Below, piece after piece: positions 40,771-58,442 of a stretch of 64,000 nucleotides of DNA. The notes beneath the pieces are model-generated. The model saw only the letters and a list, made by a program, of their open reading frames with translations. It did no database searches and had not been told where the DNA came from. The translations under genes and the position numbers were made by a program. This DNA is from Escherichia coli (GTDB lineage: Bacteria; Pseudomonadota; Gammaproteobacteria; Enterobacterales; Enterobacteriaceae), in NCBI RefSeq assembly GCF_001677475.2, contig NZ_CP012497.1; one strand, given 5' to 3'. How positions within the stretch are numbered: the first letter of the stretch is position 1; each line of letters opens with the position of its first letter.

Positions 40771-41015
40771 AAAAGCGATACTACACAGTAAAGCATGGGA
40801 CGCTACGAGCATTACAAGAGTTTGCTGATAAGCATAACGTTGAGGTGCGCAGGGAAGGGGGAAGTAAAGCTCTGCGGATGTACCGTCCGGACGGAAAATG
40901 GCGGACGGTCGTCGATTTCAAAACTAACAGCGTTCCCCAGGGCGTCCGCGACCGGGCATTCGAAGAATGGGAGCAAATCATCATAGATAATGCATTGCTC
41001 CTGAATATAGATTGA
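40767..41015 (+). CDS. Lxc/Bof-like small protein (by size and position)
   Basis: 82 aa, 4-bp overlap with the upstream ORF. Confidence 0.35.
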   Translation: MKKRYYTVKHGTLRALQEFADKHNVEVRREGGSKALRMYRPDGKWRTVVDFKTNSVPQGVRDRAFEEWEQIIIDNALLLNID

Positions 41016-41155
41016 TATACTTAAAGGTTGCGGTTACTGGCCCCTCTGATAGCCATACTCCATGAAGAGCAAACTTGTGAAGTTCCATATCTTCATGCGT
41101 TTCTTGGTCATGGAGTATTTATATTGTATAGGTAGATATTGTTTGAGTGCAGTTA

Positions 41156-41500
41156 TCACTGCATCGAGATGTAATTAGGACATGGTAATATACATTTCTT
41201 GAACGTACTATCTTTACCGGAGAACTTTATTCTCACATAAGGGGATAATGAAATATCTACCCAGAATGTGATGTCATTATGAATTCCTAACTTTTTGTAT
41301 ATTTTGTATTTCTGAAAAGAAACTGTTTTAATGCTGCGAAATCGGGACTTTGATATCTGAGTGATATTATATCCCTTTAATAATAACTCAAGTACGCTGC
41401 ATTCAGCTTCTGTCAATGATGCAGATATCCACACATGAACTGTAATATCATGCCTTTCTATATGTGCTTTTATATAACAAGTTTCTTTTTTATTATTCAT
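41156..41500 (-). CDS. LuxR/GerE-type HTH transcriptional regulator (small, no receiver domain)
   Basis: 114 aa; LTEAECSVLELLLKGYNITQISKSRFRSIKTVSFQKYKIYKKLGI matches the LuxR C-terminal HTH; AT-rich context. Confidence 0.55.
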   Translation of the reverse strand: MNNKKETCYIKAHIERHDITVHVWISASLTEAECSVLELLLKGYNITQISKSRFRSIKTVSFQKYKIYKKLGIHNDITFWVDISLSPYVRIKFSGKDSTFKKCILPCPNYISMQ

Positions 41501-41604
41501 TTTGTTAATATATATATCAAAAGATAGAAATAATGGAATATCGGTGTCATGGTAAAGAGCAGTCCATCCATGGTTCTGCTCTTTGTTCTTAGATGCTATT
41601 TAGT

Positions 41605-44600
41605 TCAGAAGGTATACTTCACACCCAACATTGCAGATGTGTCGTTATACCCTTTGTCACCGACTTGAACACCTACATTCCCCCACAGGTTCAGTCTGGA
41701 ATTTATCTGCCCCTCAACACCGGTTTTTATTTCTCCGATATTACGGGCACCGTCCTGATGTACCGTCACACCATTCATACGAGTACCAAAATCACGGGTG
41801 TTATGCAGCCAGTTCACTTCCACAAATGGGCTGAATTCCCGGGATTTGCCTTCATCTATACGACTGTGGCTTTTAATCCATGTTTTCACGCCCAGACGGG
41901 TACGGACATTACCATCTCCGGTGCTTTCAACACGGGTACCGTTGCTTTCGCGATGTTCGTCCGCTTTAACACCCATCCAGATGACCTGAGCCTGAGGCTG
42001 GACATACCACTCATTCAAACCACCTTGGCTGCCCGTAAACTCACCAGCCTTCCAGGTATAACCAGTTTCCAGTGATGCAGTAAGTCCTTTTGATTTCCAG
42101 GATTCACTCTGCAATCCATCACCTTTAACATAGTTATCAAACCAGCTGTACTGTGCCCAAGAGTCTAGGTAAGCCCCGTTATGTGTTTCATCATTGGCAT
42201 ACCAGGTGGCATACAGCCCAGTGCTGTAACCATTCACACTACCTTTTGAACGATATCCTGTGCGCACAGATTCTGTATTATTGTGGTCATTACCGTATCC
42301 GGCCATTAAGCCAAGATGCCAGCGATCCGTTTTATTCCAACCCCACTGTGCTATATCGCCGCCCAGTTGCATAACATAACGGTTGCTTTGTGTTTTTAAC
42401 TGGTTGCTTCCGTCGCGCCAGCGATTGTGTCCACCCTCATGACGCATCCACATGCTTGTAGTTTTCAATTCACCGGTAATCACATCGGTATACTGCATTT
42501 GCCCCTGACGTTCGTGTAGGCGAGTCACGAACATAGTATTTGCAGCAGCAATGTTTGCCGTATAGCTACCAGCTTCTGGGCGAAGATCATTGTCACCTGG
42601 TGTTGGGGTCGGATTTGGCTCCGGGTCCGGGTTCGGAGTTGGATCCTCAGGTTGTTTGCCACTAGTTAGGTACCAGTTGCCATTTTTATCGCCTTGCCCC
42701 CGCCCAAGAGTGTAATCATAAGCACCAGCCGCAATTCGGCCAACTTGTACAAAGTCACCGTTAGATTGACCATCAACCTGGATAATGTTGATGCCATTGA
42801 GTGTTTGTGCCCCAATACCACCAACGTTGTTTACGGAAACAAAGGTTTTACCCTCTGTATTTCCTTTTACAACCAACTTATCGATTGGAGATGTGTCGTC
42901 ACCAAGAACGCCTGAAAAGTAGATATAGCCATTTTCGCCAGTATAATCACCATTAATTGTTAAAGTGTTTTTTGCATCGCTGCCCAAATATATAGAGCCA
43001 TTATTATTAAGATGAGCAACATCCGAATCGCTAACCATATTCCAGATGCTGTTTTTAGCTAAATTAACAATGCCACCATTATACGCGGTTCCAGTCCAGT
43101 TGGAATTTTCTAATGAAAGATTGGCAATACTGTTACTATCAGCGCGAATATCGCCATTAAAGGAAGTATTCTTGACTGTAACATCAACGTTCCCTCCCAC
43201 ACCGGCATCATTACTGGTTGAGAAGATGAATGTGCCGTTATTCTTTATTTGGCTGCCATCTAACGTGGCGGAAATAGCACCACCATTAGCATTAAAGTTA
43301 TATCTAGTTTCGCTAATCATCACCCCATTCTCTTGGGTAAGCTCAACTTTTGCATTATTGGCAGCGACTACAGAGTCAGCCTCTTTTCCTGATACATGAA
43401 TGGATGCATTATTGCCACTAATAACTGTATTGTCATCACTGACCCATATTCCATGAGCATAATCACCGCTTGTTGTAATCGATGAACCAGAACCAAGTGT
43501 AATTTTTGCAGCTGAATTTGCTGTTGCTCCATATGAGTTTAGCCCCTTAGTAATAATCTGGGCTGTATGGGCATTAACAGTGGCTTCATTTTGTGCATTT
43601 ATACCGTATGAGTCAGTACCGGCTGTATTAATAGCTATTTGCTCGAAGCTAATATCAGCTACTTTACCATGCCCCCACACACCTATTGACTGATCACCTA
43701 ATGTGGCGATTGTTGATGTTCCCGTCAGCTCTACGCGTGAATCAGGTGCTGAGTCTGAGGGATTTAAAGCCGTAACATATATACCTTTGGCTGATGTGCC
43801 ATTTGTTTTTATTGAGATACTATCACCCGTTATTATACCACCATTACCACCGGTGATATGGATGGTATTAGCCTGCGTCCCTGATGTTTCAAGAGATGCA
43901 TTTACTCCAAGATTTATATTCCCATTATTAGAGGCAGTTACGGCATGAGCTTGTTTGCCAGAAGTGGTTACCTGGAGTCCTTTAGATACAGATATACTAG
44001 AGTTATTGCCATCTGCACGTAAACCATAGCCATTTTGGCCTGAAGTGGAAATATGAACATCAGCTAATTCAGCTGAGCCAGCTGACGATGCAGATACTCC
44101 CCAAGCCCCTGTTCCATCAGTTTTAATCTGCGTATTTGTTAGTGAAACATAACCGTTGTTTTCGGCAGATATGCCACGAGCTCCCCATGCTTGTGATGGT
44201 TTTTTATCCCCCAGAGTGGTAATGGTTGAGTCGCTAATTACTATTTTGCTATTTATGCCAGAGCTAACAATACCTCTGGCATTATCTCCAGATGTGGTAA
44301 TGTTAACTTTATTTAAACTGGCTTGGCCTCCATTTAAAATAGAAACACCACTAGCATTTACACCAGATGTGTTAATATCACCTTGTTCAACAGTTAGTGA
44401 AGATTTGTCAACATTAATCCCTGTAGCGTTTATCCCACTTGTTGTAATTGACATACCGTTAGCGATAGTCATTGAAGAATTATTATCAAGTGAAATGCCA
44501 GAGGCGTTTTTGCCTTTTGTGGTTATTGTAATCCCACCTTGAGAGTTAATTTTAGACCCACTGGATATATTAACTCCGTTTGCCTTATCACCTTCTGTAG

Positions 44601-44859
44601 ATAACGTCACTGTACCTTCGGTAGTTAGTTCACCTGAATTTGTGACAGAGATCGCATATCCATTACTTCCTGTATTACTGCCCGTATTAATATCGAGGTT
44701 ATCTTTATTAACTTGAACATCATTATCAATTTTAATAGCAGTTGTTGAAGCGTAAGCATTTGAAAATAATGCGCCGATTATAGCTGCCAGTAGGGTCAAG
44801 CGAGGAGAGTTCCCCCCTGAAGAGCTATTTTTTTTATTATTATAAACAGAAAGTGACAT
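41605..44859 (-). CDS. AIDA-I-type autotransporter adhesin (type Va secretion)
   Basis: 1084 aa; N-terminal signal peptide; about 700 aa of imperfect Gly/Ser/Thr/Asn-rich repeats; Pro-rich linker PEDPTPNPDPEPNPTPTPG; C-terminal beta-barrel ending GVKYTF. Confidence 0.85.
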   Translation of the reverse strand: MSLSVYNNKKNSSSGGNSPRLTLLAAIIGALFSNAYASTTAIKIDNDVQVNKDNLDINTGSNTGSNGYAISVTNSGELTTEGTVTLSTEGDKANGVNISSGSKINSQGGITITTKGKNASGISLDNNSSMTIANGMSITTSGINATGINVDKSSLTVEQGDINTSGVNASGVSILNGGQASLNKVNITTSGDNARGIVSSGINSKIVISDSTITTLGDKKPSQAWGARGISAENNGYVSLTNTQIKTDGTGAWGVSASSAGSAELADVHISTSGQNGYGLRADGNNSSISVSKGLQVTTSGKQAHAVTASNNGNINLGVNASLETSGTQANTIHITGGNGGIITGDSISIKTNGTSAKGIYVTALNPSDSAPDSRVELTGTSTIATLGDQSIGVWGHGKVADISFEQIAINTAGTDSYGINAQNEATVNAHTAQIITKGLNSYGATANSAAKITLGSGSSITTSGDYAHGIWVSDDNTVISGNNASIHVSGKEADSVVAANNAKVELTQENGVMISETRYNFNANGGAISATLDGSQIKNNGTFIFSTSNDAGVGGNVDVTVKNTSFNGDIRADSNSIANLSLENSNWTGTAYNGGIVNLAKNSIWNMVSDSDVAHLNNNGSIYLGSDAKNTLTINGDYTGENGYIYFSGVLGDDTSPIDKLVVKGNTEGKTFVSVNNVGGIGAQTLNGINIIQVDGQSNGDFVQVGRIAAGAYDYTLGRGQGDKNGNWYLTSGKQPEDPTPNPDPEPNPTPTPGDNDLRPEAGSYTANIAAANTMFVTRLHERQGQMQYTDVITGELKTTSMWMRHEGGHNRWRDGSNQLKTQSNRYVMQLGGDIAQWGWNKTDRWHLGLMAGYGNDHNNTESVRTGYRSKGSVNGYSTGLYATWYANDETHNGAYLDSWAQYSWFDNYVKGDGLQSESWKSKGLTASLETGYTWKAGEFTGSQGGLNEWYVQPQAQVIWMGVKADEHRESNGTRVESTGDGNVRTRLGVKTWIKSHSRIDEGKSREFSPFVEVNWLHNTRDFGTRMNGVTVHQDGARNIGEIKTGVEGQINSRLNLWGNVGVQVGDKGYNDTSAMLGVKYTF

Positions 44860-45343
44860 AGATAACCTCGAGTTTATACATTATCCGGATTTATAATAAC
44901 AGATGTTTTAGTTTACTGTGTGATTATGTTCTCGCAAATATTCATGCATTTCGCTGCACAAAATCGGAAAAATAATAAATAAGGAGGTTGAATAAATCAA
45001 TTATTCACTTTAAATAAATTTCAAATGAAAATCATTCAACAAATATATGCGATTAATGTGCATCGTTACATAAAAATCATGGAGACGCATTGAATTATTA
45101 TTCAATTATTGATTATGAAACAACCAGCTTAATATGCGTGCTATTAATTCCTCCATTTATCACCTTTATATCTACTGGTAATAGATGCTGAGGCTTGGTT
45201 AGTAAAATGTCTTCATTTGGTGTTGATGTTAATTTGTGTTTTTTATTGTTTTGTTTTTGTTTTTTATGTGTTTTGCAAATAATAATTTTTGGTTACCTTA
45301 AGTAGTAATTTGTAATTAGCTGCTTGGTGTAATAAGTTTGAAA

Positions 45344-46012
45344 TTAAAGGTAATCATATTTACCTGTGAGTAAGCCTTGCGGCACACGTGTTTCTCCCAT
45401 TCGTTGAGTAGCATTAATAATATTGATGAATGGCTCTATCAGCGAGGGCTCACGCTGCGTATTAATCCTACCAGCCATTGCCTGAATGTAGTGCGCGCTC
45501 ACCACGTTGTTGTATTCCGTTGCAAAGCAACATAGTAGCGTCAGAACGTGCTCTGTGGTTATTTCGCTCCAGTTGATGTTGAAAAATTCATCGCCTTTTT
45601 TGTCGTGTTCGGAATCGAAGATGCTTTGATGGAGAATGTACTTGCCGGACTCCTTGCGTGGTAACTTGATCGCTTTCTGGCGTTCCAGCTCCTTGTAAAT
45701 CTGCATTGCTTCAATCAGTACCGGCCTGCCGTTCATGAAGGGATCGCGCAACCTTACACGCTGGCCAACTCGACCAGTAATAAAGCTGTTTTCCTCTTCC
45801 ACCAGCACGATAAAACCCTTTTCCTCTTTTTCTCGCAATTCGCGCAGCAGCTGGAGTTCCATGTCGCGGCGGCGTTCAGGGTAGCTGGTCCGCTCAGCCA
45901 TTATCAGCTCGTTGTTGATCCATGCAGCAGTCATTGACGCCGGTTTGCCGACGTTCATCGAAACAACGCATATTTTCTTATCCATAGCTCCCCCTACAAA
46001 AAGAAAAGCCAC
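45344..46012 (-). CDS. Hypothetical protein (mat position)
   Basis: 222-aa ORF between the autotransporter island and ref. Confidence 0.35.
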   Translation of the reverse strand: MAFLFVGGAMDKKICVVSMNVGKPASMTAAWINNELIMAERTSYPERRRDMELQLLRELREKEEKGFIVLVEEENSFITGRVGQRVRLRDPFMNGRPVLIEAMQIYKELERQKAIKLPRKESGKYILHQSIFDSEHDKKGDEFFNINWSEITTEHVLTLLCCFATEYNNVVSAHYIQAMAGRINTQREPSLIEPFINIINATQRMGETRVPQGLLTGKYDYL

Positions 46013-46173
46013 CAGCGGCGGCTTAGCAATACAACTGAAGGTAGCGCCCGGTACTCAGACTGTGCCGTCCATGGAATATTTGAAAAGGGATCCATCCGTA
46101 CCGGGCGTGTGATGATTCTGACTCAAGTCACTTGTCAGTTGTCAATCATTTAAGATTAAAAATAATATATTTA

Positions 46174-46734
46174 TTAGTGCATGATGTTTGCCATTTCATA
46201 GGCGTCAGCCAGCAACTCCATCTCTGACTTGTTCAGCAAGGTGAATTCTTTCTTGCCTCCAACCACACCATCGGCATGAACAGGGACCAGCCAGGGGTAT
46301 TTTTCTCTTACTTCAGCCGGAGCTGCATGCTGGTGGTGCCATCTACAAAGTGGCAATTGCTTTTTATGACAACCCGGCGCGGTACGACCGGCGATATGGT
46401 GCAGAGACACCTCATTAGATATTACTCCATGCATATAGCAGGCAATGCAGGGGAGAGCGCCAAGAGCATTGGCGATGCGCCGTTCCTCCGCCGTTGGTGT
46501 TCTCCCCTTCAAGCCACGAGATTTTATTTTTACCGCGCTTTTCCGCGTTTTGCTGGCTGGTGGGCGCTCTTTCTGTTTAGCGATACGGCGGTCGATAGTA
46601 TCTCGCATTTTCTGATATTGAGATTCTCGCCAGACCGGATCAGCCAACTTCTCCCGTTGCCGAGCGATCGCTCGTTCTCTGGCTGCCTTCTGCCACTTGC
46701 GGCACTGTTCAATTTTTTGTTCGATTGTTTTCAT
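46174..46734 (-). CDS. ref: Ref recombination enhancement function (HNH-type nuclease)
   Basis: 186 aa, MKTIEQKIEQCRKWQKAARERAIARQREKLADP...CRWHHQHAAP; recognised as P1 Ref. Confidence 0.85.
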   Translation of the reverse strand: MKTIEQKIEQCRKWQKAARERAIARQREKLADPVWRESQYQKMRDTIDRRIAKQKERPPASKTRKSAVKIKSRGLKGRTPTAEERRIANALGALPCIACYMHGVISNEVSLHHIAGRTAPGCHKKQLPLCRWHHQHAAPAEVREKYPWLVPVHADGVVGGKKEFTLLNKSEMELLADAYEMANIMH

Positions 46735-46820
46735 ATGGTCAAAAAAAAGGCGGCCTAATGGCCGCCTATGATGTCAAGGAGTTAAGTAATGGCTCGTCTT
46801 CGTAGTTGACAAAAACCGCG

Positions 46821-46849
46821 GCTCAATTATAGCAATCAATTAGAGCAAT
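46821..46849. promoter_or_regulatory. Tandem overlapping C1 operator-like sites upstream of ref
   Basis: Reverse complements ATTGCTCTAATTGATT and ATTGCTATAATTGAGC. Confidence 0.5.
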
Positions 46850-46981
46850 GATAGATATTTTGTTTATCGCGAATCACATTTTTTCACTTCAGTACCAGTG
46901 TGCTATACTCCTTCTTGATTGATTGGATGCGGAATACAAACCCGCTCTTTTGTGCAGCCTGGCTCCTTGCCAAGCTTTTTT

Positions 46982-47293
46982 TTATTTCATCATGGAAGCT
47001 GTTAACGCTTTGGACCTTGCTGAACTGATTGAAAGGACATTGTTAACCTTACCCAAGAGTTCGCCAAACTCAGACATCACTTTAGCAAAACCGCGCCGTG
47101 CTTCTTCCTCGGTGGCATTCATCACGAAATGTTCAGCACTACGCATACTTTTGACAGGAAACGCAACGGATATTGAGTCAATATCAGGCATTCTATCGCT
47201 CAGCTTTACAGTGACAATGACGGCTGGCGACTGAATATTAGTGCTTACAGACAGCACTACATATTTTCCGTCGATGTTGAAATCCTTTCTCAT
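46982..47293 (-). CDS. Hypothetical protein (cra position)
   Basis: 103-aa ORF between cre and ref. Confidence 0.35.
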   Translation of the reverse strand: MRKDFNIDGKYVVLSVSTNIQSPAVIVTVKLSDRMPDIDSISVAFPVKSMRSAEHFVMNATEEEARRGFAKVMSEFGELLGKVNNVLSISSARSKALTASMMK

Positions 47294-47310
47294 ATGTCAC
47301 CATAAATATC

Positions 47311-47326
47311 AAAGAATTAGAGCAAT
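47311..47326. promoter_or_regulatory. C1 operator-like site
   Basis: Reverse complement ATTGCTCTAATTCTTT. Confidence 0.45.
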
Positions 47327-47343
47327 CATTTACGCATTAATGG

Positions 47344-48375
47344 CTAATCGCCATCTTCCAGCAGGCGCACCATTGCCCCTGTTTCACTATCCAGGTTACG
47401 GATATAGTTCATGACAATATTTACGTTGGTCCAGCCACCAGCTTGCATGATCTCCGGTATTGAAACTCCGGCACGGGCCATATCTCGCGCGGCTCCGACA
47501 CGGGCACTGTGTCCAGACCAGGCCAGGTACCTCTGGCCAGAGTCATCCTTAGCCCCGTAAATCAATCGGTGAGTTGCTTCAAAAATCCCTTCCAGGGCGC
47601 GAGTTGATAGCTGGCTGGTGGGTGATGGCGAGGCAACACCATTTTTTCTGACCCGGCAAAACAAGTAGTTATTCGGATCATCAGCCACACCAGAGACAGA
47701 AATCCATCGCTCGACCAGTTTAGTTACCCCCAGGCTAAGTGCCTTCTCTACACCTGCGGTGCTAACCAGCGTTTTCGTTCTGCCAATATGGATTAACATT
47801 CTCCCACCGTCAGTACGTGAGATATCTTTAACCCTGATCCTGGCAATTTCGGCTATACGTAACAGGGTGTTATAAGCAATCCCCAGAAATGCCAGATTAC
47901 GTATATCCTGGCAGCGATCGCTATTTTCCATGAGTGAACGAACCTGGTCGAAATCAGTGCGTTCGAACGCTAGTGCCTGTTTTGCACGTTCACCGGCATC
48001 AACGTTTTCTTTTCGGATCCGCCGCATAACCAGTGAAACAGCATTGCTGTCACTTGGTCGCGGCAGCCCGGACCGACGATGAAGCATGTTTAGCTGGCCC
48101 AAATGTTGCTGGATAGTTTTTACTGCCAGACCGCGCGCCTGAAGATATAGAAGATAATCGCGAACATCTTCAGGTTCTGCGGGAAACCATTTCCGGTTAT
48201 TCAACTTGCACCATGCCGCCCATGACCGGCAAACGGACAGAAGCATTTTCCAGGTATGCTCAGAAAACGCCTGGCGATCCCTGAACATATCCATCAGGTT
48301 CTTGCGAACCTCATCACTCGTTGCATCGACCGGCAATGCAGGCAAATTTTGGTGAACGGTTAACGATTTAGTCAT
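47344..48375 (-). CDS. cre: Cre tyrosine recombinase
   Basis: 343 aa, ...LTVHQNLPALPVDATSDEVRKNLMDMFRDRQAFSEHTWKMLLSVCRSWAAWCKLNNRKWFPAEPEDVRDYLLYLQARGLAVKTIQQHLGQLNMLHRRSGLP...; matches Cre apart from N-terminal residues. Confidence 0.95.
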   Translation of the reverse strand: MTKSLTVHQNLPALPVDATSDEVRKNLMDMFRDRQAFSEHTWKMLLSVCRSWAAWCKLNNRKWFPAEPEDVRDYLLYLQARGLAVKTIQQHLGQLNMLHRRSGLPRPSDSNAVSLVMRRIRKENVDAGERAKQALAFERTDFDQVRSLMENSDRCQDIRNLAFLGIAYNTLLRIAEIARIRVKDISRTDGGRMLIHIGRTKTLVSTAGVEKALSLGVTKLVERWISVSGVADDPNNYLFCRVRKNGVASPSPTSQLSTRALEGIFEATHRLIYGAKDDSGQRYLAWSGHSARVGAARDMARAGVSIPEIMQAGGWTNVNIVMNYIRNLDSETGAMVRLLEDGD

Positions 48376-48767
48376 TTATTATGCGTAATTTTAACAGTTA
48401 AGCCTTGTTCATGAAGTATCTCATCAATAATTCGAATCACATCCCCAGGTAGATCATCGTTCTCGAAATATCTGTGATCGGGGATTTCTACAGTGATTGG
48501 AGTTGCTGCTTCATGCAAAATCCGAACAGTCTTTTTTTCTTCTTTGCATGCTGAATATTCAGCCTCTTCGATATCTTTCCAGCTTGCACCATCAAATTGC
48601 TGGTAAACCCGAGTGTACTGCATGCGGTTTCGCTTTACTTCTTCTGCTAACTCCCAAATTGCAACGGCCATAGCACGTTCATTTTCACTCGTTCCAGGGT
48701 TAGCAGCTTTTTGTTTTGCGTCCTTAAGTAAGGCGTTTACCTTGGCATCCGTCAGGCTATTAAACAT
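48372..48767 (-). CDS. Hypothetical protein upstream of cre
   Basis: 131 aa; its stop overlaps the cre start by 4 bp. Confidence 0.4.
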   Translation of the reverse strand: MFNSLTDAKVNALLKDAKQKAANPGTSENERAMAVAIWELAEEVKRNRMQYTRVYQQFDGASWKDIEEAEYSACKEEKKTVRILHEAATPITVEIPDHRYFENDDLPGDVIRIIDEILHEQGLTVKITHNK

Positions 48768-48786
48768 GCATCACCTCATGATCAAG

Positions 48787-49008
48787 TTAAATTATTGTTT
48801 TCAGCAGAGTGTACAGGATTGGATCTGCCTTTACCTGTTTATGGTTCTCGTCATAGAAACGCCAGCGACCGCGCGTGCGTTCTATTTTCTCTTCACCGCG
48901 AGATAATGACAGTTGGTAACTATCACGCTCAAACCCTTTTGCCCGCCAGTAACCACGGTTTTTCTCAAGCTCAAGATGAGTGGACACTTTAGCAGCTGAA
49001 TATCCCAT
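48787..49008 (-). CDS. Hypothetical small basic protein
   Basis: 73-aa ORF between loxP and cre. Confidence 0.25.
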   Translation of the reverse strand: MGYSAAKVSTHLELEKNRGYWRAKGFERDSYQLSLSRGEEKIERTRGRWRFYDENHKQVKADPILYTLLKTII

Positions 49009-49197
49009 TTTTCACCTCTGATTGATTGGTGGTGCTAAGTGCGCTACGCGAAATCTGGAGCACTAACACTGCCAACATTTCGCAGATTTTACGTAGCGCA
49101 ACCTTGATCAAATGATCAAGTGATCACTATTTGACCTGATAAGGTATTGAACTGTATGGATTTACAGGTAAATTGATCATGTTCAATAACCCTTAAG

Positions 49198-49231
49198 ATA
49201 ACTTCGTATAATGTATGCTATACGAAGTTAT
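49198..49231. other. loxP site
   Basis: Exact ATAACTTCGTATA-ATGTATGC-TATACGAAGTTAT (13-bp inverted repeats, 8-bp spacer). Confidence 0.95.
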
Positions 49232-49276
49232 TAGGTCTGAAGAGGAGTTTACGTCCAGCTGCGCATAAAAAACAAG

Positions 49277-49291
49277 AATTATTAGAGCAAT
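49277..49291. promoter_or_regulatory. C1 operator (minus orientation)
   Basis: Reverse complement ATTGCTCTAATAATT. Confidence 0.55.
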
Positions 49292-49357
49292 ATATTTTGA
49301 GAGATAAATCCCACTCCACCAGCCAAAAACTGGATTGTTTTTCATAGTTGTTTGACA

Positions 49358-49373
49358 ATTGCTCTAATAAATT
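49358..49373. promoter_or_regulatory. C1 operator (plus orientation), upstream of coi-c1
   Basis: ATTGCTCTAATAAATT, near-exact consensus. Confidence 0.6.
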
Positions 49374-49612
49374 ATAGTTTTGCCACCGTTTCGTAATACG
49401 ACTTTGGATTCACTATTTAATGTGTCTTCAGCGTTGTAGAGCGGCTCAGAAGGAAATGAGCAAACAGGGAAACCTTATACAACGGCATTACAGCTATGCA
49501 TTGCTCATCTTACACACAGCGCAATGTTGATAGATAACCCCAGCATGGAACATGGGTGAAACAGTAGGTCAGAGCTTCAGGCTCTGTGTTGTCAATACAG
49601 TGAGGCATAATT

Positions 49613-49822
49613 ATGGCTTTCATTCCACCAACCATCGACGATGTTAGACATTGCTCTAACGCTTTATCTGTAGACCCCGCCGAAACCGACGCTGCTCGCG
49701 CCATTGCTGAACACTACTCAAAGATATCCAATCAGGAGTACCGCATCACCCAAGACGACCTGGATGACCTCACTGACACAATCGAATATCTCATGGCAAC
49801 TAACCAGTTAGACTCACAATAA
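49613..49822 (+). CDS. coi: Coi-like (C1 inactivator), by size and position
   Basis: 69 aa immediately upstream of c1. Confidence 0.55.
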   Translation: MAFIPPTIDDVRHCSNALSVDPAETDAARAIAEHYSKISNQEYRITQDDLDDLTDTIEYLMATNQLDSQ

Positions 49823-49932
49823 ATGCACTAATAAATCTATTATTTTTGTTTGATCCCTCTATAATATAGGTCAGTAATGACCGGTTTTCTCAGCCGGGCG
49901 TTATTGACCATGTCAATTCTGGAGGAGGATCA

Positions 49933-50784
49933 ATGATAAATTATGTCTACGGCGAACAACTGTACCAGGAGTTCGTCAGCTTCAGGGATCTCTTTCTAAA
50001 AAAAGCTGTTGCACGCGCCCAACACGTTGATGCCGCCAGCGACGGTCGTCCTGTACGCCCGGTTGTCGTTCTACCGTTCAAAGAAACAGACAGCATTCAG
50101 GCTGAAATTGATAAATGGACTTTAATGGCGCGGGAACTGGAACAGTACCCAGACCTCAATATCCCAAAGACTATTTTATATCCTGTGCCTAACATCCTTC
50201 GCGGTGTACGTAAGGTTACGACTTATCAGACAGAAGCTGTGAACAGCGTCAACATGACCGCTGGCCGCATTATTCATCTGATTGATAAGGACATTCGCAT
50301 CCAAAAAAGCGCGGGGATCAATGAGCACAGTGCGAAATACATAGAGAACCTGGAAGCAACAAAAGAGCTAATGAAGCAGTACCCAGAGGATGAAAAATTC
50401 CGTATGCGCGTACACGGCTTTAGCGAAACAATGCTGCGCGTCCACTACATTTCCAGTAGCCCTAACTACAATGATGGTAAATCAGTTAGTTACCATGTGC
50501 CACTGTGTGGCGTGTTTATCTGCGATGAAACTCTCCGTGATGGAATTATCATCAACGGTGAATTCGAAAAAGCAAAATTTAGCCTTTATGACTCCATAGA
50601 ACCGATCATCTGCGACCGCTGGCCGCAAGCAAAAATATATCGCCTGGCAGATATTGAAAATGTAAAAAAACAAATTGCCATCACTCGCGAAGAGAAAAAG
50701 GTTAAGTCAGCCGCATCAGTTACGCGCAGCCGTAAAACTAAGAAGGGGCAGCCAGTAAACGACAACCCCGAAAGCGCGCAATAA
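49933..50784 (+). CDS. c1: C1 immunity repressor
   Basis: 283 aa, MINYVYGEQLYQEFVSFRDLFLKKAVARAQ...; matching operators throughout the window. Confidence 0.85.
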   Translation: MINYVYGEQLYQEFVSFRDLFLKKAVARAQHVDAASDGRPVRPVVVLPFKETDSIQAEIDKWTLMARELEQYPDLNIPKTILYPVPNILRGVRKVTTYQTEAVNSVNMTAGRIIHLIDKDIRIQKSAGINEHSAKYIENLEATKELMKQYPEDEKFRMRVHGFSETMLRVHYISSSPNYNDGKSVSYHVPLCGVFICDETLRDGIIINGEFEKAKFSLYDSIEPIICDRWPQAKIYRLADIENVKKQIAITREEKKVKSAASVTRSRKTKKGQPVNDNPESAQ

Positions 50785-50816
50785 ATTATGCCCGGCATCA
50801 ACCGGGCATTCTTCCA

Positions 50817-51932
50817 TTATTCAGCCGCCACCGGTTTTAACAAGCCAGCATCGAGCAGTTTACGCGTCAACCACTGTTGGCCTTTCCCCGTTAATTGAGG
50901 CGTCAGCCGTATCTGATAGCCATCTTCATCATCCAGCACCACTTCTCTCACTGTGAAATATCCGGCGTTTATGTACTGCTGAAACGGTACATTTTTACGT
51001 CCGCCGGACGCAATCAGGATGCCGTTCTCCCGTAACCAGGCAAACAGCGCATTTTGCTTAAGTCCAACAACCTTTGCAAAATTCCCAATCAGGATCCCCT
51101 TAGCCACTGATACCCGGTCGGCAAAATCGACTTTAGGGGCTGCGGCCACCAGCTGCTGATTTAGCTGGTGGGTTTTCTGTTCCAGAAGTTGCTTTTGTTC
51201 AGCCAGCTCGGCAGCCAGGCGCAGAGCTTCTGGAAGCGTCTGGGGGATTGCGATCGGTTGCTGTTCTTTTTGTCGGAAGTAGCTGTCTTCCAGTTTTTCA
51301 AAGAATGCCCATGCCTGATCTGTTTCGAGCATTTTTGCGTGACGGGCAGCTCCTCGTTCCGTCCAGAGGATGAGTGAGCGGGCTTTAGGAGAGATGGGAT
51401 TTTGTGAGTTACTTAAAGTCACCCGCAAATTGTTCAAATCATCTCCAATAACTTTATAGAAATGCTTGCCTTCACAAAAACGTTCAGCATTACGGGAAAA
51501 GTTCTTCTTGATGTTATCCGCATCGGTCCCATACCCCTTAGCAAGGATCTTGGTTGTCACTACACGCACTCCCAGCCATTCCAGAACGGGAATTTCATCA
51601 GACTGATTCTGAACAACCACCAGCTCTGACTCCTGAACTGAAGGTGCATGAACTTTTTCTGATTTAACGTTAGTTGCTTTCATTCTGTGTGCCTCCTTGC
51701 GTGTTTCGGCTGCGACGGTTGCGTAATTCAGATGCCCCTGTTCGAGCAGGTATTCGCGGATATCAGACAGCAGGATGCGGTGAACCGCGTTCTTGTCCTT
51801 TCTCCGGTAAAGTTGTTTGGTGATCATGAAGTAGTTGGCTATAACGCCTGGTATATCCCTGGTACTGATACAAGCAGTGTGCTGTTCAATTGCCTCGATC
51901 ATCTCTTCACGGGTGACTAATGACGTTCTCAT
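50817..51932 (-). CDS. ant1: Antirepressor Ant1-like (KilA-C / antirepressor C-terminal domain)
   Basis: 371 aa from MRTSLVTREEM...; its start overlaps the icd stop (ATGA); C-terminal DFADRVSVAKGILIGNFAKVVGLKQNALFAWLRENGIL. Confidence 0.6.
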   Translation of the reverse strand: MRTSLVTREEMIEAIEQHTACISTRDIPGVIANYFMITKQLYRRKDKNAVHRILLSDIREYLLEQGHLNYATVAAETRKEAHRMKATNVKSEKVHAPSVQESELVVVQNQSDEIPVLEWLGVRVVTTKILAKGYGTDADNIKKNFSRNAERFCEGKHFYKVIGDDLNNLRVTLSNSQNPISPKARSLILWTERGAARHAKMLETDQAWAFFEKLEDSYFRQKEQQPIAIPQTLPEALRLAAELAEQKQLLEQKTHQLNQQLVAAAPKVDFADRVSVAKGILIGNFAKVVGLKQNALFAWLRENGILIASGGRKNVPFQQYINAGYFTVREVVLDDEDGYQIRLTPQLTGKGQQWLTRKLLDAGLLKPVAAE

Positions 51933-52150
51933 AGTCCCTCCTGAGCACAAGCGTTTACAGGGGGGCACCAGTAACTGAGAGAATTGCGCAAATCGGTAGA
52001 AAAACGGGCGGAGAAAATACAGGGAGCATCCGGAAGCTGAGAACGTGCCTCATCTTCTGTTGGTGCGATAACGAAGTGATAGTGACGTTTCTGGCAGGAG
52101 TAAAAGCGCCAGATGAATTCAGGGTGAGCTGGGGTAGGGGTAGTAGCCAT
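51929..52150 (-). CDS. icd: Icd-like small protein
   Basis: 73 aa (MATTPTPAHPEFIWRFY...), strong SD AAGGAGG 8 nt upstream; translationally coupled to ant. Confidence 0.55.
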   Translation of the reverse strand: MATTPTPAHPEFIWRFYSCQKRHYHFVIAPTEDEARSQLPDAPCIFSARFSTDLRNSLSYWCPPVNACAQEGL

Positions 52151-52159
52151 AATGGCAGC

Positions 52160-52468
52160 CTCCTTAGACGTTGGTATGTAACCACCGCAGAAGAGACCAA
52201 TCTTGCTGGCGGTGGACTGTACGGAGTTGGCCTTACTGGCGTCCAAGGTAACCAGCCTACCCGAAGGTAGCCCCATACAGCCCACCATTGTAGAGGTGTG
52301 CGTGTACGCCGATACAAAAAAAGACGCGAGCGGCGTCTGTATCGCCTTAGACTTAAGCGGGAGGCCAATCCCGGCACCCGTTTTAATGAGGTGCCTGATC
52401 AGCATAAACCGAAAATGCCTCAAGGCGCAAGAGGTCAGGTTCAATGTAACATCGGTAGTTAAAAAACA
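52160..52468 (-). ncRNA. Candidate c4-like antisense RNA / structured leader of the icd-ant operon
   Basis: About 300 bp non-coding region upstream of icd, with a terminator-like hairpin and a repeat of the icd RBS-region sequence (CCTTAGAC). Confidence 0.3.
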
Positions 52469-52469
52469 C

Positions 52470-52486
52470 AATTTATTAGAGCAAAT
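52470..52486. promoter_or_regulatory. C1 operator variant upstream of the icd-ant region
   Basis: Reverse complement ATTTGCTCTAATAAATT. Confidence 0.45.
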
Positions 52487-52488
52487 AT

Positions 52489-53973
52489 TCATTCATTAAG
52501 CCATGCCAGAGCTTCATCAACCTGCGCTTCGTCTTCGACGCTAAGCACTTCATCCTGGGGAACATAATCCGCCAGCATAGCGAAACAATATGTATCCCAA
52601 TGGTCTGGTGAGTGCAGGTTGAGTTTTTTCTTCATATCCTCCTTACTCATCACCTTCCATTGACCTGCGGAGTTAATCCCTACAGGGATTTTCGACGCTT
52701 CCTCAATAGTTTCATTACCCTTATCCAGTCTCATACGACCAGATTTTACGGCCTCTGCGGCTTGAACGTTGGCATAAGCACGTTTATCAAAGTACAGGCT
52801 CTTATCTTCACGGCTATGCATCTTTTTACCCCAGCGTATACGCTGTACGGTAATACCATAATACTCGTACATCAGATCCGCCGTTGCTTTACCCAGGCCA
52901 TCGCCGTCTATCGCTATGGTGATATTGGGGAATCGCTCAGGATTACATTCTGCGAAAATTTTGGCAGCAAGCTGCGTTTCTGTAACGTCTGTGTATTCCA
53001 GCATTCGATAGTTGATTACACGGCGTTTATTTCGCTGGCCGGACACCATCATGATATTGATAACGGACTTATCCCGTCCCGTACCACCAGCAACGTCCAC
53101 ACATGCAAGCCAGCCCCATCCTTTGGCAATCTTGACTTTCCGCCGCGTTGCACGTTCAACCTCATCACGTCCAAGAAGGAAGCCATCCTGTGATTTAGGG
53201 AATAGGCCGCGTACCTTAATCATGTACATAGGGTTATCACGCCCGCCGTACTCCGCCAGCTTCATTTTGATAAATGCTGGCGTTACCAGCGGTGATTCCT
53301 CACTGTTAAGCGTGATCGCCGTATAAACGCCATCAGGGTTACCAGGACGCTTGGCCAGTTTATGGTGAGTATCGTAGAAATAGCCGCTTGGGCGTGTAGG
53401 CTGTGACAGCAATAAGATGCGGTTATCCTGTCCGGTAAGAGCACCGGTGATGATACCGAAAGCTCTATCACTGACACCGGAGGCTTCATCGATAATATAC
53501 AGAAGATGGTCTGCGTGTTCACCAGCGAGAGCTTCTTCACTTCCCAGACGAAAGCCCTTCGGTACTACAGTCCATACACCTTTACCAGTAACCTCATAGA
53601 AAGCGGTTTCTGTCAGAACAAAATAATCAGCAAGCCATGGAAAACGGCTGGTGGCCGTAGCCCAGTTTATCTTGATGTACTTGAATATACCGGTCATTAC
53701 CTGCTGAATTTTGTTCGCAACGATAATGGCGCGGGCACCGGGATACATGATTATGAACAACATGATCATGATAGAAGTCATGTCTGATTTCCCGGTACCG
53801 TGACCAGACGAAACAGATGTCTTGCTACCCTGTTCCTGCACAGACTCAATAATCAGATCCTGCTGCCAGGTAGGTGTTTTGCCGAACAAAACATCTGCCG
53901 CCGCAATCCAGTCATAACGATATAGCGCCACCAGCTCGCGCCAACGCGGATCCGTTACGCAACTTCTGGCCAT
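52489..53973 (-). CDS. pacB: Terminase large subunit PacB
   Basis: 494 aa; Walker A HGTGKSD, Walker B IIDEAS, C-terminal nuclease-like domain. Confidence 0.9.
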
Positions 53974-55166
53974 TAATCATCATCCCCGTATAGCTTGCGG
54001 GTAACTTCTTCGTCTTCCTCCTCGTCTTCGTCCAGGTCTTGTTCCAGCCATGGTTCGTTTGATACACCTTCAGTATCAACATCTCCATAACCGCCTGTAT
54101 CAACGATATCGGCGATTTCTTCCCTACGTTGCTCAATCCACAATGCGGCATCGGCGCGGCGGTTGGCGGCCCGTTCTCGCGCAACTTTGTCCAGATCTTC
54201 AAGAGAAGGGCCACCGACGGCAGTTTGCCTTTCCTCATCATCGGTATTGGTCTTAGGAGCACGCAGATCGGCTTTGATTTGCTCCAGCATCAGGGGCGGC
54301 ACTTTCCCACCATGCGCCTCGATGAATTCAGCTGCTTCCAGCACTGACCAGTTATTTTCACGCTTTCGTTCGTATGCCAGCTTAACAATGCCAGCTTGCC
54401 CCATAGATAAAGCGTGCTTTTCCGCCTCCCGGCTTTCTTTTCGATAGTTATTCCGGATGCTGTAAATGGTGTTGATCAGACTGCTTATCTGCGCGGAACA
54501 GCTGTTTAGCATGCTCGCGATACGGTATTCAGGCGGAGTACCTTCATCATCGTCTTTTTGCTGATCGCGCATTTCCTGCACCAGGCGAATACACGTATCC
54601 CTGGCGTTCTCCAGCATAATGAGATGAGAAAGAGACTTTTCCAGAAGAGTGGTTTCCAGAACATCGGCCCCGGACCGACGCAACATAGCGCGCGCGGCCT
54701 TCCGCGCTTCAACGTTATCTATCAGGTAATCGCCAGCTTCGAATTCAAAGCGTTCACCATCATCATCCAGGGTGTCGCGTTCCAGGCGATCACGTAAGGT
54801 CCGGTGGGCACGGGTGATCACGTCATGATCATCAGAACGATCATTTATGCGCTTATTTTGGCGCTTCGCATTCTCGACTGCGGCACTGACAACGGCATTA
54901 ACTCTTTGTTTTTTCGCTATTCCAGCCGCAATGTGATCACCTGCATGTTGATCATTAGAGTGATCAATGATCATGCTTTTTAGTGGCTTCCTGACTGGCT
55001 TATTTGGCTTGCGGCTGTCCGCTGTCCTGGTGTCTTCTTTGAAGGCACGGAGATAACGACGTGCGGTATTAGGGTTAAGATTAAACTCGGCGGCATACTG
55101 TGCGATGGTGTAACCACCATCTCGCGCCAGGCGAGCAAAATTCTTCTTGTGATCGTCCCAGGTCAC
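53973..55166 (-). CDS. pacA: Terminase small subunit PacA (contains pac site)
   Basis: 397 aa, acidic C-terminus; hexamer repeats inside the 5' third of the gene. Confidence 0.9.
54787..54975. other. pac packaging site (two clusters of TGATCA/G / GATC hexamers)
   Basis: GATC hexamers at 54787, 54815, 54826, 54838 and TGATCA at 54934, 54949, 54961, 54968, separated by about 90 bp. Confidence 0.75.
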
Positions 55167-55251
55167 TTATGCTTCCTTTCGTAAAAACTCTTTTTGACGC
55201 GAGGGTAACGAAAGTCACATGTCAAAAGGCCCGGAACGGGCAAGCAATCAA

Positions 55252-55704
55252 TCAGATACGTGCGGATGTGGCATTACCGTAATGACGGTGCTGACGGGCC
55301 ACCTTATTGAAAAGTTGACGCGCCATTACCCAAGGCTGGTGCTCCCGGCGTTCCTTTTCGTCCTGCGTCATATAGAGTTCGTTCTGGAGTTTTTCATCAA
55401 ACCGGCGCGGCGCGCGGCTGCGGCGAAAGAATTCAGGATTCAGAGAGTGGATCTGAAATCTACGTGGGCGTGTACTGTCATCAATCAAAACAGACGAATA
55501 CTTAGACACAGCGATAGCCTTTAAGCGCAGATAAACGTCGCGCTTATCGACATCCAGATGCGGGTATTCCTTTTCAAGGATTGCTGCGAGTTCTTTCGCT
55601 GATAGAAGAGATTTAGTGCGGATCATGTAATCCGCAATCTCATACGATGTTATTCGTGAGTGATTTATTTCCATGAAGTGGCGTCCCTGCCAGTTAAGTA
55701 ACAT
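55252..55704 (-). CDS. lpa: Lpa-like late promoter activator (by size and position)
   Basis: 150 aa directly upstream of pacA; preceded by a C1 operator. Confidence 0.55.
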   Translation of the reverse strand: MLLNWQGRHFMEINHSRITSYEIADYMIRTKSLLSAKELAAILEKEYPHLDVDKRDVYLRLKAIAVSKYSSVLIDDSTRPRRFQIHSLNPEFFRRSRAPRRFDEKLQNELYMTQDEKERREHQPWVMARQLFNKVARQHRHYGNATSARI

Positions 55705-55776
55705 CCTGTCACCTACTGATTAGCCCATGTCAACTAATCAACGTGCAATATAATACACTAGATTAAAGAAATATCA

Positions 55777-55791
55777 ATGCATTAGAGCAAT
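55777..55791. promoter_or_regulatory. C1 operator-like site upstream of lpa
   Basis: Reverse complement ATTGCTCTAATGCAT. Confidence 0.45.
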
Positions 55792-55792
55792 T

Positions 55793-56836
55793 TTATCTAA
55801 CACACGACGAATGACTTGTGATAGCGCCGACTCCAAGCGCGTAATCAAAGAACAATCGTTGATGCATCGCCAGCCTGCCGTGCGTTTTCTCCCAATTATC
55901 GCGGTCACGCTCAATATCACGCTGGCATGACTGGCACAGAGGAATTGCGTAAATGTCATGCGCGCATAATCGACTATGACGAACGATATAAGGCGTAATG
56001 TGAGCGCCAGCTCTCGCAGCTCCACAGCCACAGCATGGACGGGAAGCCACAAAGTCCATGTACTCGGGCAATTTTAGCGATTGAAGTTTTGGTATTTTGA
56101 AATGCGCCATACCTGGGTCGGAGTCAACATCCACAGGGCATACTTTTGCACGCATCGGCGCGGCGCGTTCTTCCATCATCTGAACATATGCTGTAGCGCG
56201 ATCGTCATACGGGCGAATATCCGCCTCTTTCAGAGGTCCGCTATCCTGCGTTGCAGCTTTCATCTTATTTATTGATATACGGCAGACTTCTTCCGGCATC
56301 AGGTGCATCATGTTGCGCATGAAAGCCCACCAGCACAGTTCCTGAATACTTAAATCATGGCCATCTGAAAGCCCCATTTCCTGACGGGCGACATCCAGCA
56401 TCCAGTTAACGCGATTATTATGCAGCGTTTCTTTCAGCTCATTAAAACCACGCATCCGGTAATGGTTATCGTGATGCCAGCACAACAACACCGCGCTATT
56501 GTCTCGTTCAGCGTGGACAATATGGTTGTCACACCAACTACGATCTGCGGCCTGGCATCGCCCCTCTTTCCTGCGCAACCACGCCACCAGCGCGTCAATT
56601 CCACCAATACGGCGAAACAGTTCATCGCTGTTAAAAAACGGCTGCAACGCCTCATTTGTTGCCATGGTTTGCTCGGAAACAACGAGGCCGTCGTCCATGT
56701 GCTCGATTAACTCACGCGGCACCGGCTCCATAATAAATTTACGGCCAGCCTCCACCAGCTTTCTGACTTCCTGATCCACTTTGAATGTGGCGAGGCCAAG
56801 CTCTTTTTGTACAAAGGGAGTAATTACGGCTTTCAC
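55793..56836 (-). CDS. Cys/His-rich hypothetical protein (pdcB position)
   Basis: 347-aa ORF with several Cys/His clusters. Confidence 0.4.
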
Positions 56837-56863
56837 ATCACACCTTTAATCACTGATTGGGCT

Positions 56864-57064
56864 TTATCTGCTGCCCGGCATTTTCTGTTTAAGCACAACC
56901 ATTTCCTGACGGCATAACACAGCAATAGCGGTCCTGGCACCAATTTGCTTACCAACCAGGTATTGCTTTACCTCGCGGCGACTCACGCCATCAAGAAGCA
57001 TCTTTAACGCTCTACGGGACAATTTGTTGTATTTACGTGCCATTAATCTACTCCGCAGAACCAT
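56864..57064 (-). CDS. Small basic hypothetical protein (pdcA position)
   Basis: 66-aa ORF overlapping the doc 3' end. Confidence 0.3.
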
Positions 57065-57428
57065 ACAATCTACGTAACGTGGCGGCGACAGTAGATACAG
57101 ATATCTCTCCGGTCGCAGCCCCTACGGTAAGGTCTGCCAGTTCTGGTGAATCAAATACCTGCACCCCGTTACGGCGTAGAAATAGCAGCGCACTGTTTAG
57201 CGCGGTACGCTTATTGGCATCATTGAATATATGCCCTCTCGCAGTAGCCACCAGGTAGGTGGCGGAGACTTCGAAAAGGTCGGTGATCTCTTCGTAGGCA
57301 ACTCTGGCCTGAACTCTCCCGATAATGGCCTCTGCCCTACCCGGATCTGACATTCCCGGCAGGCCGCCGTAGCGGCTTATATTCGCATCATGAAGCGCAA
57401 TAAGTTCTTCCGGTGATATATGCCTCAT
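57048..57428 (-). CDS. doc: Doc toxin (Fic-fold)
   Basis: 126 aa, [25 protein letters not shown]... Confidence 0.9.
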
Positions 57429-57649
57429 TATCGGTTTACCAGTTCCTTGTTGGTGGAGTCCAGGGTGTCAAACAGGGATGCAAATTCGGCATCCAGCGCC
57501 GCTTTTTTGTAGGCTTCGAAAGTAGCCTTGCTGACAATTACTGCTGGCTCACGGCCTCTGCGAGTGATTTCAACCTCTTCCCCGGCTTCAACATTGTTGA
57601 GCACTTCAGAAAGGTTGCCGCGCGCGGTACGGAAGTTAATGGATTGCAT
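57428..57649 (-). CDS. phd: Phd antitoxin
   Basis: 73 aa, [41 protein letters not shown]...; the ORF-track start is 2 codons upstream. Confidence 0.9.
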
Positions 57650-57721
57650 AAACACCTCGTGTACTCGTTATGTGTACACAATTATAAACTTCACAGGCAT
57701 AAAGCACCAGCACTTTGCAGC

Positions 57722-58111
57722 TTAAATCACCGGACAATCATCAAATTCCCCACTTCGGGCATCATTAATGACATGAGTGATCACACCAAAAACAGCATTA
57801 CTACCCGTGTAACCATCGTCATCTACTGGTAACGCCTCTTTCTTCCCGGTGCTTAAATCCTCAAGGTGCTGACGCGGATACTTTCGGTATCTCTTTATGC
57901 GATATTCACCCTCCATAGCGCAGACAAGCAGCGAACCATCAACTGGAGTAAGCGAAGAATCAACCACCAGCAAAGCACCCTGCAATATTCCCTCACGGTG
58001 ATGACTATCAGCTGCCCTCATGAAGTAGGTCGCTGAAGGATGTCTAATTATCTGCTGATCAAGAGAAATACGGCTCTCAGCATAATCCGCCGCAGGAGAA
58101 GGGAAGCCCAT
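57722..58111 (-). CDS. humD: HumD (UmuD'-like S24 peptidase domain)
   Basis: 129 aa, S24 LexA/UmuD-like C-terminal domain. Confidence 0.8.
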   Translation of the reverse strand: MGFPSPAADYAESRISLDQQIIRHPSATYFMRAADSHHREGILQGALLVVDSSLTPVDGSLLVCAMEGEYRIKRYRKYPRQHLEDLSTGKKEALPVDDDGYTGSNAVFGVITHVINDARSGEFDDCPVI

Positions 58112-58127
58112 AATACTCGCCTCTTAA

Positions 58128-58147
58128 TACTGTATATACATACGGTA
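58128..58147. promoter_or_regulatory. LexA (SOS) box upstream of humD
   Basis: TACTGTATATACATACGGTA vs consensus TACTG(TA)5CAGTA. Confidence 0.5.
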
Positions 58148-58442
58148 TATGTTGAAGCTATATATTTTTGAACTCTATCTCTTAAAAAAGATGTTAATAA
58201 GATGCTAACTATTGAAAGGCATAAATATATACAATTCCAACAAACGTTATTTTTAACAAATTTTTTCTCTCCGTTGACTTTTGCGAAAGCCTTGTCTGGC
58301 CTAAATTGCGCGGAAGCTACTTTTTCCTTCCTGAGTTATCCACAGAGTTATGCACTTGCATGTATAACCTATACACACTATCTTAATTCGCAAGACACTG
58401 ATGTTGCGGTATTGAAGGTTCATTGGGTTAAAAATAGACATT

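Follow-up and report, generated by a model that had tools for sequence, protein, structure and literature searches.

Predicted C1 operators in a P1-like phage-plasmid of Escherichia coli, including two sites additional to the annotated P1 set

The analyzed window, a stretch of 64,000 nucleotides from the Escherichia coli contig NZ_CP012497.1, is a natural variant of the P1-like phage-plasmids, lies in reverse orientation relative to phage P1, and is 95–98% identical to it at the DNA level (megablast; AF234172/NC_005856), with two extra sites, one in a second immI-type module and one before c8. A perfect loxP site (ATAACTTCGTATAATGTATGCTATACGAAGTTAT) at positions 49196–49229, whose counterpart is formed by the lox halves annotated at both ends of AF234172, fixes the P1 identity and the orientation of the window. 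In the alignment, positions 29040–41006 correspond to P1 ssb through lxc; 45471–49214 to mat, ref, c8, cre, and cra; 49215–50783 to P1 94800–93232, with lox, imcA/B, coi, and c1; and 52491–64000 to pacB through pmgQ. The P1 operators Oc4, OrepL, Orlf, Odmt, Oban, O26, and Oppp are outside the window.

The repressor gene c1 (49933–50784, plus strand) encodes a protein identical to P1 C1.100 at 282 of 283 residues, the one difference being at residue 193 of this mutant reference, and scores 610.9 bits with the NCBIfam equivalog phage_rep_C1 (cut-off 500); Pfam has no family for C1. This near-identity is retained despite approximately 4% DNA divergence over the aligned lox–c1 segment. The genes for the C1 inactivator, coi (49613–49822, plus strand; 68/69 residues identical to P1 Coi), and for the C1 co-repressor, lxc, or bof (40767–41015, plus strand; 81/82 residues identical to P1 Lxc), are also present; in the P1 annotation, Lxc "enhances binding of C1 to all its operators." Hence, the window encodes the same repressor, inactivator, and co-repressor as P1, and their near-identity allows the DNA-binding specificity to be transferred from P1. 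In P1, the targets of C1 are 22 operators scattered over the genome that share the asymmetric 17-bp consensus ATTGCTCTAATAAATTT; lpa is one of the lytic functions that C1 represses (PMC8546580). C1 is inactivated by Coi, binding is strengthened in a ternary complex with Lxc, and C1 is antagonized by Ant1/2, the synthesis of Ant being blocked by the c4 RNA (PMC8546580; PMC8201110); C1, the C4 RNA, and Icd all regulate Ant expression (PMC8201110).

The list of operators was taken from the GenBank annotation of P1, and the consensus and the number of operators from PMC8546580. AF234172 annotates 20 monovalent operators of the "phage repressor C1"; a weight matrix was built on them, on which they themselves score 6.1–27.4 bits, and both strands of the window were scanned with it. 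By pairwise alignment, eleven strong sites and the weak half-site Oc1b are positional orthologues of the "phage repressor C1" protein_bind features of AF234172; the asymmetric 17-bp consensus and the positions of Ossb, Omat, Oref, Oc1a–e, Olpa, OpmgT, and OpmgRa/b are common to the window and the C1-controlled operators of P1 (annotation of Lobocka et al., 2004). Nine of the eleven strong 17-mers are identical to those of P1, and two have one base changed, so that the window and P1 differ at 2/187 operator positions vs 60/1321 positions of the ±60-nt flanks (Fisher p = 0.028). For the strong sites at 52469, 47310, and 33583, the P1 annotation has no operator at the corresponding locus.

Ossb (former Op21; ATTGCTCTAATTAATTT, 25.7 bits) lies before ssb at 29733–29749 on the minus strand and is identical to P1 21015–21031, with a conserved promoter flank; the proposal that the ssb-linked operon is under C1 control is thus supported by orthology, and this operon would be repressed as in P1. 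Omat (former Op2b; 46167–46183, minus strand; CATGCACTAATAAATAT, 20.3 bits), upstream of mat, covers the stop codon of ref. Oref (former Op2a; 46833–46849, minus strand; ATTGCTCTAATTGATTG, 20.7 bits) lies within the spacer of the promoter P2ref and corresponds to P1 1962–1978; both Omat and Oref are identical to the P1 sites. A further operator proposed at 46821 is rejected: the segment 46820–46836 scores only 10.5 bits, a noise level at which 7.6 matches are expected, and is the -10 box of P2ref, ATTGCTATAAT.

Operators are clustered around coi and c1. Oc1e (former Op99e; 49275–49291, minus strand; ATTGCTCTAATAATTCT, 24.5 bits; identical to P1 94724–94740) adjoins the -35 box of P4cre. Oc1d (former Op99d; 49358–49374, plus strand; ATTGCTCTAATAAATTA, 25.4 bits; identical to P1 94641–94657) fills the spacer of P1coi, following the perfect -35 box TTGACA at 49352–49357 and preceding the -10 box; on the P1-based assignment, it would control imcA/B, coi, and c1. 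Oc1c (former Op99c; 49650–49666, plus strand; ATTGCTCTAACGCTTTA, 14.6 bits; identical to P1 94349–94365) is within coi. The bivalent Oc1ab (former Op99a/b; 49822–49849) covers the promoter Pc1 and consists of Oc1a (49822–49838, plus strand; AATGCACTAATAAATCT, 23.1 bits) and the weak Oc1b (49833–49849, minus strand). Among P1-like loci collected from IMG/VR with Cre as the query (70–71 loci for these three sites), Oc1d is identical in 70/71, Oc1c is invariant in 70/70, and Oc1a is invariant in 70/70 vs flanks that are only 92.7% identical. In P1, each asymmetric site is bound by a C1 monomer, and looping between the Op99 sites contributes to autoregulation.

Beyond this region, Olpa (former Op94; 55775–55791, minus strand; ATTGCTCTAATGCATTG, 19.3 bits) overlaps the -35 box of Plpa, the promoter of the late-promoter activator gene, and OpmgT (former Op88; 60957–60973, minus strand; ATTGCTCTAATAAATGT, 22.8 bits) lies before the pmgT operon; each has one change relative to P1. 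OpmgRb (former Op86b; 63049–63065, plus strand; 21.1 bits) and OpmgRa (former Op86a; 63098–63114, minus strand; 22.2 bits) are identical to P1. The overlap of operators with promoters was taken from the annotated P1 promoters by alignment; their hexamers are conserved in the window, many of these promoters being themselves "predicted" in P1. A strict sigma-70 scan is uninformative here, with 18 promoter-like sites vs 27.6 in shuffled sequences, and operators coincide only with the lpa promoter and with a site abutting OpmgT; the promoter-like TTGATA-16-TATTAT of lpa (55777–55750) is recovered independently of the P1 annotation.

The sites had initially been assigned to the upstream regions of ssb, ref, coi–c1, icd–ant, lpa, and the late genes. 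The first five assignments hold by orthology or homology with P1; the last does not, since pmgT and pmgR are C1-controlled "putative morphogenetic" operons that do not depend on Lpa, and the late genes are controlled by C1 indirectly, via Olpa and lpa.

The window has an insertion of 1.7 kb (50785–52490) between c1 and pacB, which are 24 bp apart in P1. On the minus strand, it carries, in this order, an operator, a promoter, an isrK-like leader, a C4 antisense RNA, an icd-like reading frame, and ant. The operator (52469–52485, minus strand; TTTGCTCTAATAAATTG, 21.5 bits) starts 4 nt after the stop codon of pacB and overlaps the -35 box of a promoter resembling P2c4 (P51a), with TTGTGT, a 17-nt spacer, and TGtTACATT; in the MAFFT alignment, the operator and both promoter hexamers align with Oc4 and P2c4 (P51a) of P1. 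The isrK-like leader, with the a1–b1 target region (52317–52394, minus strand), scores 60.8 bits with the Rfam isrK model, above the gathering threshold, and the C4 RNA (52205–52292, minus strand) scores 75.9 bits with RF01695 (gathering threshold 45), the C4 RNA of P1 scoring 68.8 bits.

The loops of this C4 RNA, AGGCCAA and CCUUGGAC, are complementary to the duplicated targets UUGGCCU/UUGGUCU and GUCUAAGG. Target a1 (UUGGCCU) pairs exactly with AGGCCAA; as read from the sequence, a2 (UUGGUCU) and b1/b2 (GUCUAAGG) involve one G–U wobble each; the b2 site covers the Shine–Dalgarno sequence AAGGAGG of icd. The icd-like gene (52150–51929, minus strand) encodes 73 amino acids, 51 of which are identical to P1 Icd, and matches the NCBIfam family phage_ICD_like. 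It overlaps ant (51932–50817, minus strand) by ATGA, as in P1. The encoded Ant has ANT/KilAC and ORF6N domains (matches to PF03374, 4.4e-31, and PF10543, 4.1e-18); its N- and C-terminal parts are similar to P1 Ant1, and the middle part is different.

Compared with the immI region of P1 and P7 (Op51/Oc4, P51a/b, c4, icd, ant1/2), the order of the parts is the same, as are the operator over the -35 box, the a and b targets flanking the C4 RNA, the 73-aa Icd reading by ATGA into ant, and the P1-like termini of Ant. The differences are in location (next to kilA–repL in P1 and P7, between pacB and c1 here), in the C4 loops (AGGCCAA/CCUUGGAC here, CTGTCAA/TCACTAAC in P1), in Icd, which is only 70% identical, and in the middle of Ant, which is an ORF6N domain here. 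The difference in the C4 loops argues for a different immunity specificity, and the segment 50785–52490 is, as predicted from these features, an intact immI-type module with a specificity of its own. A leader of the isrK family followed by a small reading frame and an antirepressor gene is also common to the isrK–orf45–anrP locus of Gifsy-1 in Salmonella (PMC4825925); here, the surroundings of the leader are of the P1 type and include a C1 operator and a C4 RNA.

Of 78 related modules on IMG/VR contigs, 76 have an operator core upstream of icd at a distance of 333–358 nt, in at least two genomic contexts (adjacent to pacB or other). A search for modules with an Icd-like gene in non-P1 contexts returned only relatives of at least 90% identity, nearly all of them with the operator. 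Phages RCS47, JL22, and vB_EcoM-673R5 carry this insertion too, each alongside the canonical immI, and the pacB–c1 insertion occurs in 268 of 728 matching PLSDB plasmids. In RCS47 it is at the same place, and the entire 1.7 kb matches the window at 91%. For the P1-like plasmids pTZ20_1P and RCS47, an insertion with ant at this pacB–c1 junction was described earlier as "two short hypothetical orfs and an antirepressor gene," the operator and the C4 and isrK RNAs being unmentioned (Venturini et al., 2019; PMC6906374).

The predicted control of the second icd–ant module by C1, as proposed in the initial annotation, is well supported by homology, given the alignment with Oc4/P2c4 and the recurrence of the core upstream of icd. 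This control may be only partial. The immI region of P1 has a second annotated promoter downstream of the operator, P1c4 (former P51b), and the equivalent here is weak (TTGAGG-17-GATCAG). P1c4 of P1 is constitutive; because of this promoter and its position, control of ant by C1 is probably incomplete.

The second extra site, the candidate "Oc8" (47310–47326, minus strand; ATTGCTCTAATTCTTTG, 18.5 bits), lies between the stop codon of cre and the start of c8, 16 bp upstream of the latter, and is not annotated as an operator in P1 or P7. At this site both P1 and P7 have ATTGCTATAATTATTTG, which contains ATTGCTATAAT, with a C-to-A change at position 7. Among 80 P1-like loci from IMG/VR, 72 have the full core ATTGCTCTAAT, five share the position-7 A of P1 and P7, and three differ by a G at position 9. 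Over 46 haplotypes, the variability is 0.008 in the 11-base core, 0.26 in the 18-nt upstream spacer, and 0.057 in the 16 nt downstream, the core thus being about 30-fold less variable than the adjoining spacer. Positions 12–14, where the site varies, belong to those with little information in the matrix, although the correlation is suggestive only (rho -0.40, p 0.11). The A variant, TGCTATAAT, is a perfect extended -10 box, and the C variant, TGCTCTAAT, is still similar to a -10 box; conservation for promoter function, and not for C1 binding, is a live alternative. On this evidence, the candidate Oc8 is somewhat more probably a real C1 operator than a site of another kind.

It is unlikely that the sites at 52469 and 47310 are non-functional relics that are not bound by C1, the former carried over with a recombined module and the latter retained as a conserved -10 box of c8. 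The position of 52469 exactly at the left boundary of the insertion, as seen against P1, is what a recombination scar might look like; at c8, position 7 in P1 and P7 lacks the C, neither genome has an operator annotated there, and the agreement of variability with information content does not go beyond a trend. However, both sites have the full core and score higher than the accepted operators Orlf (17.5 bits) and Oc1c; the site at 52469 aligns base for base with P1 Oc4 over the -35 box of P2c4 and keeps a fixed distance to icd in nearly all related modules; and the low variability of the c8 core stands against that of the neighboring spacer.

A third site without an annotated counterpart, at 33583–33599 on the minus strand (ATTGCCCTAATGTATTT, 16.7 bits), is 54 nt inside the N-terminal coding region of darB. 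The same sequence is present in P1, where it has no annotation. It has C at position 6, which is absent from all annotated operators, and about 0.8 chance matches are expected at such a score; this match is possibly due to chance.

Two inverted pairs of operators had been described, and both are present: Oc1e and Oc1d (49275/49358) are divergent, and OpmgRb and OpmgRa (63049/63098), between pmgQ and pmgR, converge on an 11-bp hairpin (63062–63089) that lies between them. The latter arrangement might be mainly a bidirectional intrinsic terminator of the pmgQ and pmgR operons, with the operator halves just extending the stem: the 11-bp stem has an A-run and a T-run at its sides, and the operators pair as well, the minimum free energy of the whole palindrome being -27.5 kcal/mol (z -7.5). 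We consider this improbable as the main role, since both halves are full 17-bp operator matches and are separate C1 operators in the P1 annotation; the two roles are, moreover, not mutually exclusive.

The overall statistics of the scan agree with these assignments. With up to three mismatches, the consensus ATTGCTCTAATAAATTT has 11 matches in the window vs 0.31 expected, a number reached in 0 of 100 shuffles. At 14 bits or more, the matrix yields 14 matches vs 0.8 expected and at most three in any of 30 shuffles. The scores are bimodal, the 14 sites being at 14.6–25.7 bits and the rest at or below 12.6 bits. The exact 10-mer core TTGCTCTAAT has 10 copies vs 0.17 expected, none of them in real coding sequence. 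As approximately 91% of the window is coding (greedy map of reading frames), the location of 10 of the 14 strong sites outside reading frames is highly significant (binomial 2.5e-8), and equally good matches do not occur in coding DNA at background frequency. The number of non-coding strong sites becomes 11 of 14 if the spurious reading frame across the c4 RNA region is disregarded; the site at 52469 is flagged as coding because this mechanically called frame spans the RNA genes.

It is hardly credible that no dedicated repressor is involved and that the motif reflects common AT-rich promoter elements or random matches in intergenic DNA rich in A and T: the core TGCTCTAAT does resemble an extended -10 box (TGnTATAAT), a one-base variant (ATTGCTATAAT) is the annotated -10 box of P2ref, and TTGCTC of the operator serves as the -35 box of several P1 promoters, but generic promoter elements are not expected to share 11 identical bases or to produce such an excess of the exact 10-mer and so sharp a gap in scores, and the sites are orthologous to annotated C1 sites in a window that itself encodes a near-identical C1.

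We therefore regard the motif copies as operators of C1, the master repressor of this P1-like phage-plasmid, with a probability of roughly 0.93, as judged from sequence comparison. The ten main coordinates given for the motif in the initial annotation were right to within 0–2 bases, and its minimum of nine control points is exceeded, approximately 12 being counted in the window: Ossb, Omat, Oref, the c8 candidate, Oc1e, Oc1d, Oc1c, Oc1ab, the second immI operator, Olpa, OpmgT, and OpmgRab. Omat (46167–46183), Oc1c (49650–49666), and Oc1a/Oc1b (49822–49838/49833–49849) had been missed. The statement that the sites are always intergenic is valid for most of the strong sites, as counted above; the exceptions are Oc1c within coi, Omat over the ref stop codon, and the match within darB.

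From established P1 biology, the circuit would operate as follows. In the prophage state, C1 would occupy every one of the sites, in a complex strengthened by Lxc, and would occlude or block the overlapping or adjoining sigma-70 promoter. This would silence ssb, mat, ref, cre/cra, coi–c1 (by autoregulation), lpa, and the pmgT and pmgR operons. Inactivation of C1, via Coi or the Ant antirepressor, would open all these points at once, and Lpa would then switch on the late genes.

Generally, the C1 operator network has for decades been part of the known and annotated regulation of phage P1, and the finding, while correct, is ordinary; the C1-controlled operators of bacteriophage P1 were reportedly treated by Eliason and Sternberg in 1987. 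The map obtained here is a rediscovery of the P1 regulon and not a new one: it provides a sound annotation of the element, re-deriving the textbook regulon from sequence alone, with nothing new in principle. Its added value is in the differences from the reference phage, that is, in the operator of the second module and in the conserved c8 site absent from P1 and P7.

These differences suggest a wider proposition, for and against which we see the balance as even: most wild P1-like phage-plasmids may have a functional C1 operator at c8, lost in P1 and P7 by the C-to-A change, and about one third may also carry a second, heteroimmune c4–icd–ant module that is wired to C1 by an operator of its own and adjoins c1, so that the published regulon would under-describe the natural network. 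In that case, C1 would repress c8 in natural elements, and c8 would be de-repressed in the reference strains P1 and P7. Resistance and virulence genes travel on natural P1-like plasmids; if both sites are functional, models of the lysis–lysogeny decision derived from laboratory P1 would miss inputs that are present in the elements circulating in the field.

Between the C1 operators OpmgRa (63098-63114, minus strand) and OpmgRb (63049-63065, plus strand) lies a hairpin, AAAACGTGATG-TACACT-CATCACGTTTT (63062-63089), bordered by an A-run and, at its opposite end, a T-run. The hairpin resembles an intrinsic terminator that would act in both directions between the pmgQ and pmgR operons. An identical OpmgRa/OpmgRb hairpin is present in phage P1, and no terminator is listed at it in the P1 feature table as retrieved. 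Likewise shared with P1 is a LexA box, CTGTATGGATTTACAG (49151-49170), which adjoins lox; its annotated P1 counterpart (46-65) overlaps the promoter P2coi. By analogy with P1, the box is predicted to connect the SOS response with the coi-c1 region.

The region of the type III EcoP1 res/mod genes is replaced in the window (about 41000-45470), and the replacing DNA contains a 1084-aa ORF (41605-44859). A type I restriction-modification system in place of EcoP1 res/mod is indicated, since HsdR and restriction subunit S are annotated at the replaced region in related phages; the region is the counterpart of 'RD-1' as described by Venturini et al. (2019; PMC6906374). The left end of the window (1-1981) is also non-P1 DNA. 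Positions 5-1981 show about 90% match to the left-hand end of E. coli chromosomal Mu-like prophages, and searches of phage and plasmid collections with 1-1981 gave no match. This Mu-like stretch carries an ORF for a CI-like repressor (1217-1732, plus strand), a Ner-like ORF with an HTH_35 domain (774-1025, minus strand), and a Mu-transposase gene extending past the window edge. P1 homology restarts at window position 1981 (P1 46296), within pmgC; hence, given the Mu-like left end, a Mu-like transposable phage appears to have inserted in this morphogenesis gene of the P1-like element.

In the immI-type module (C1 operator, leader, C4 antisense RNA, icd, and ant), the leader upstream of C4 (52317-52394) matches Rfam isrK at 60.8 bits, above the threshold, whereas the P1 leader (locus L004, 4218-4312) gives a sub-threshold isrK score (35.1 bits) and a c4-a1b1 match of 51 bits. 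The Gifsy-1 isrK sRNA family and the a1/b1 decoy region of P1 appear to be one kind of element. In some P1-like contigs (IMG/VR loci L151-L166), an additional Icd-like module lies roughly 6 kb away from the one next to pacB, e.g., in IMGVR_UViG_2648501186_000003 (loci 14911-21108 and 20963-27181). Approximately 334 nt upstream of its icd, the additional module carries its own near-consensus operator (ATTGCTCTAATAAATTT or ATTGCTCTAATGAATTT). The P1-like phage group therefore has immI-type modules at three or more locations, each accompanied by a putative C1 operator.
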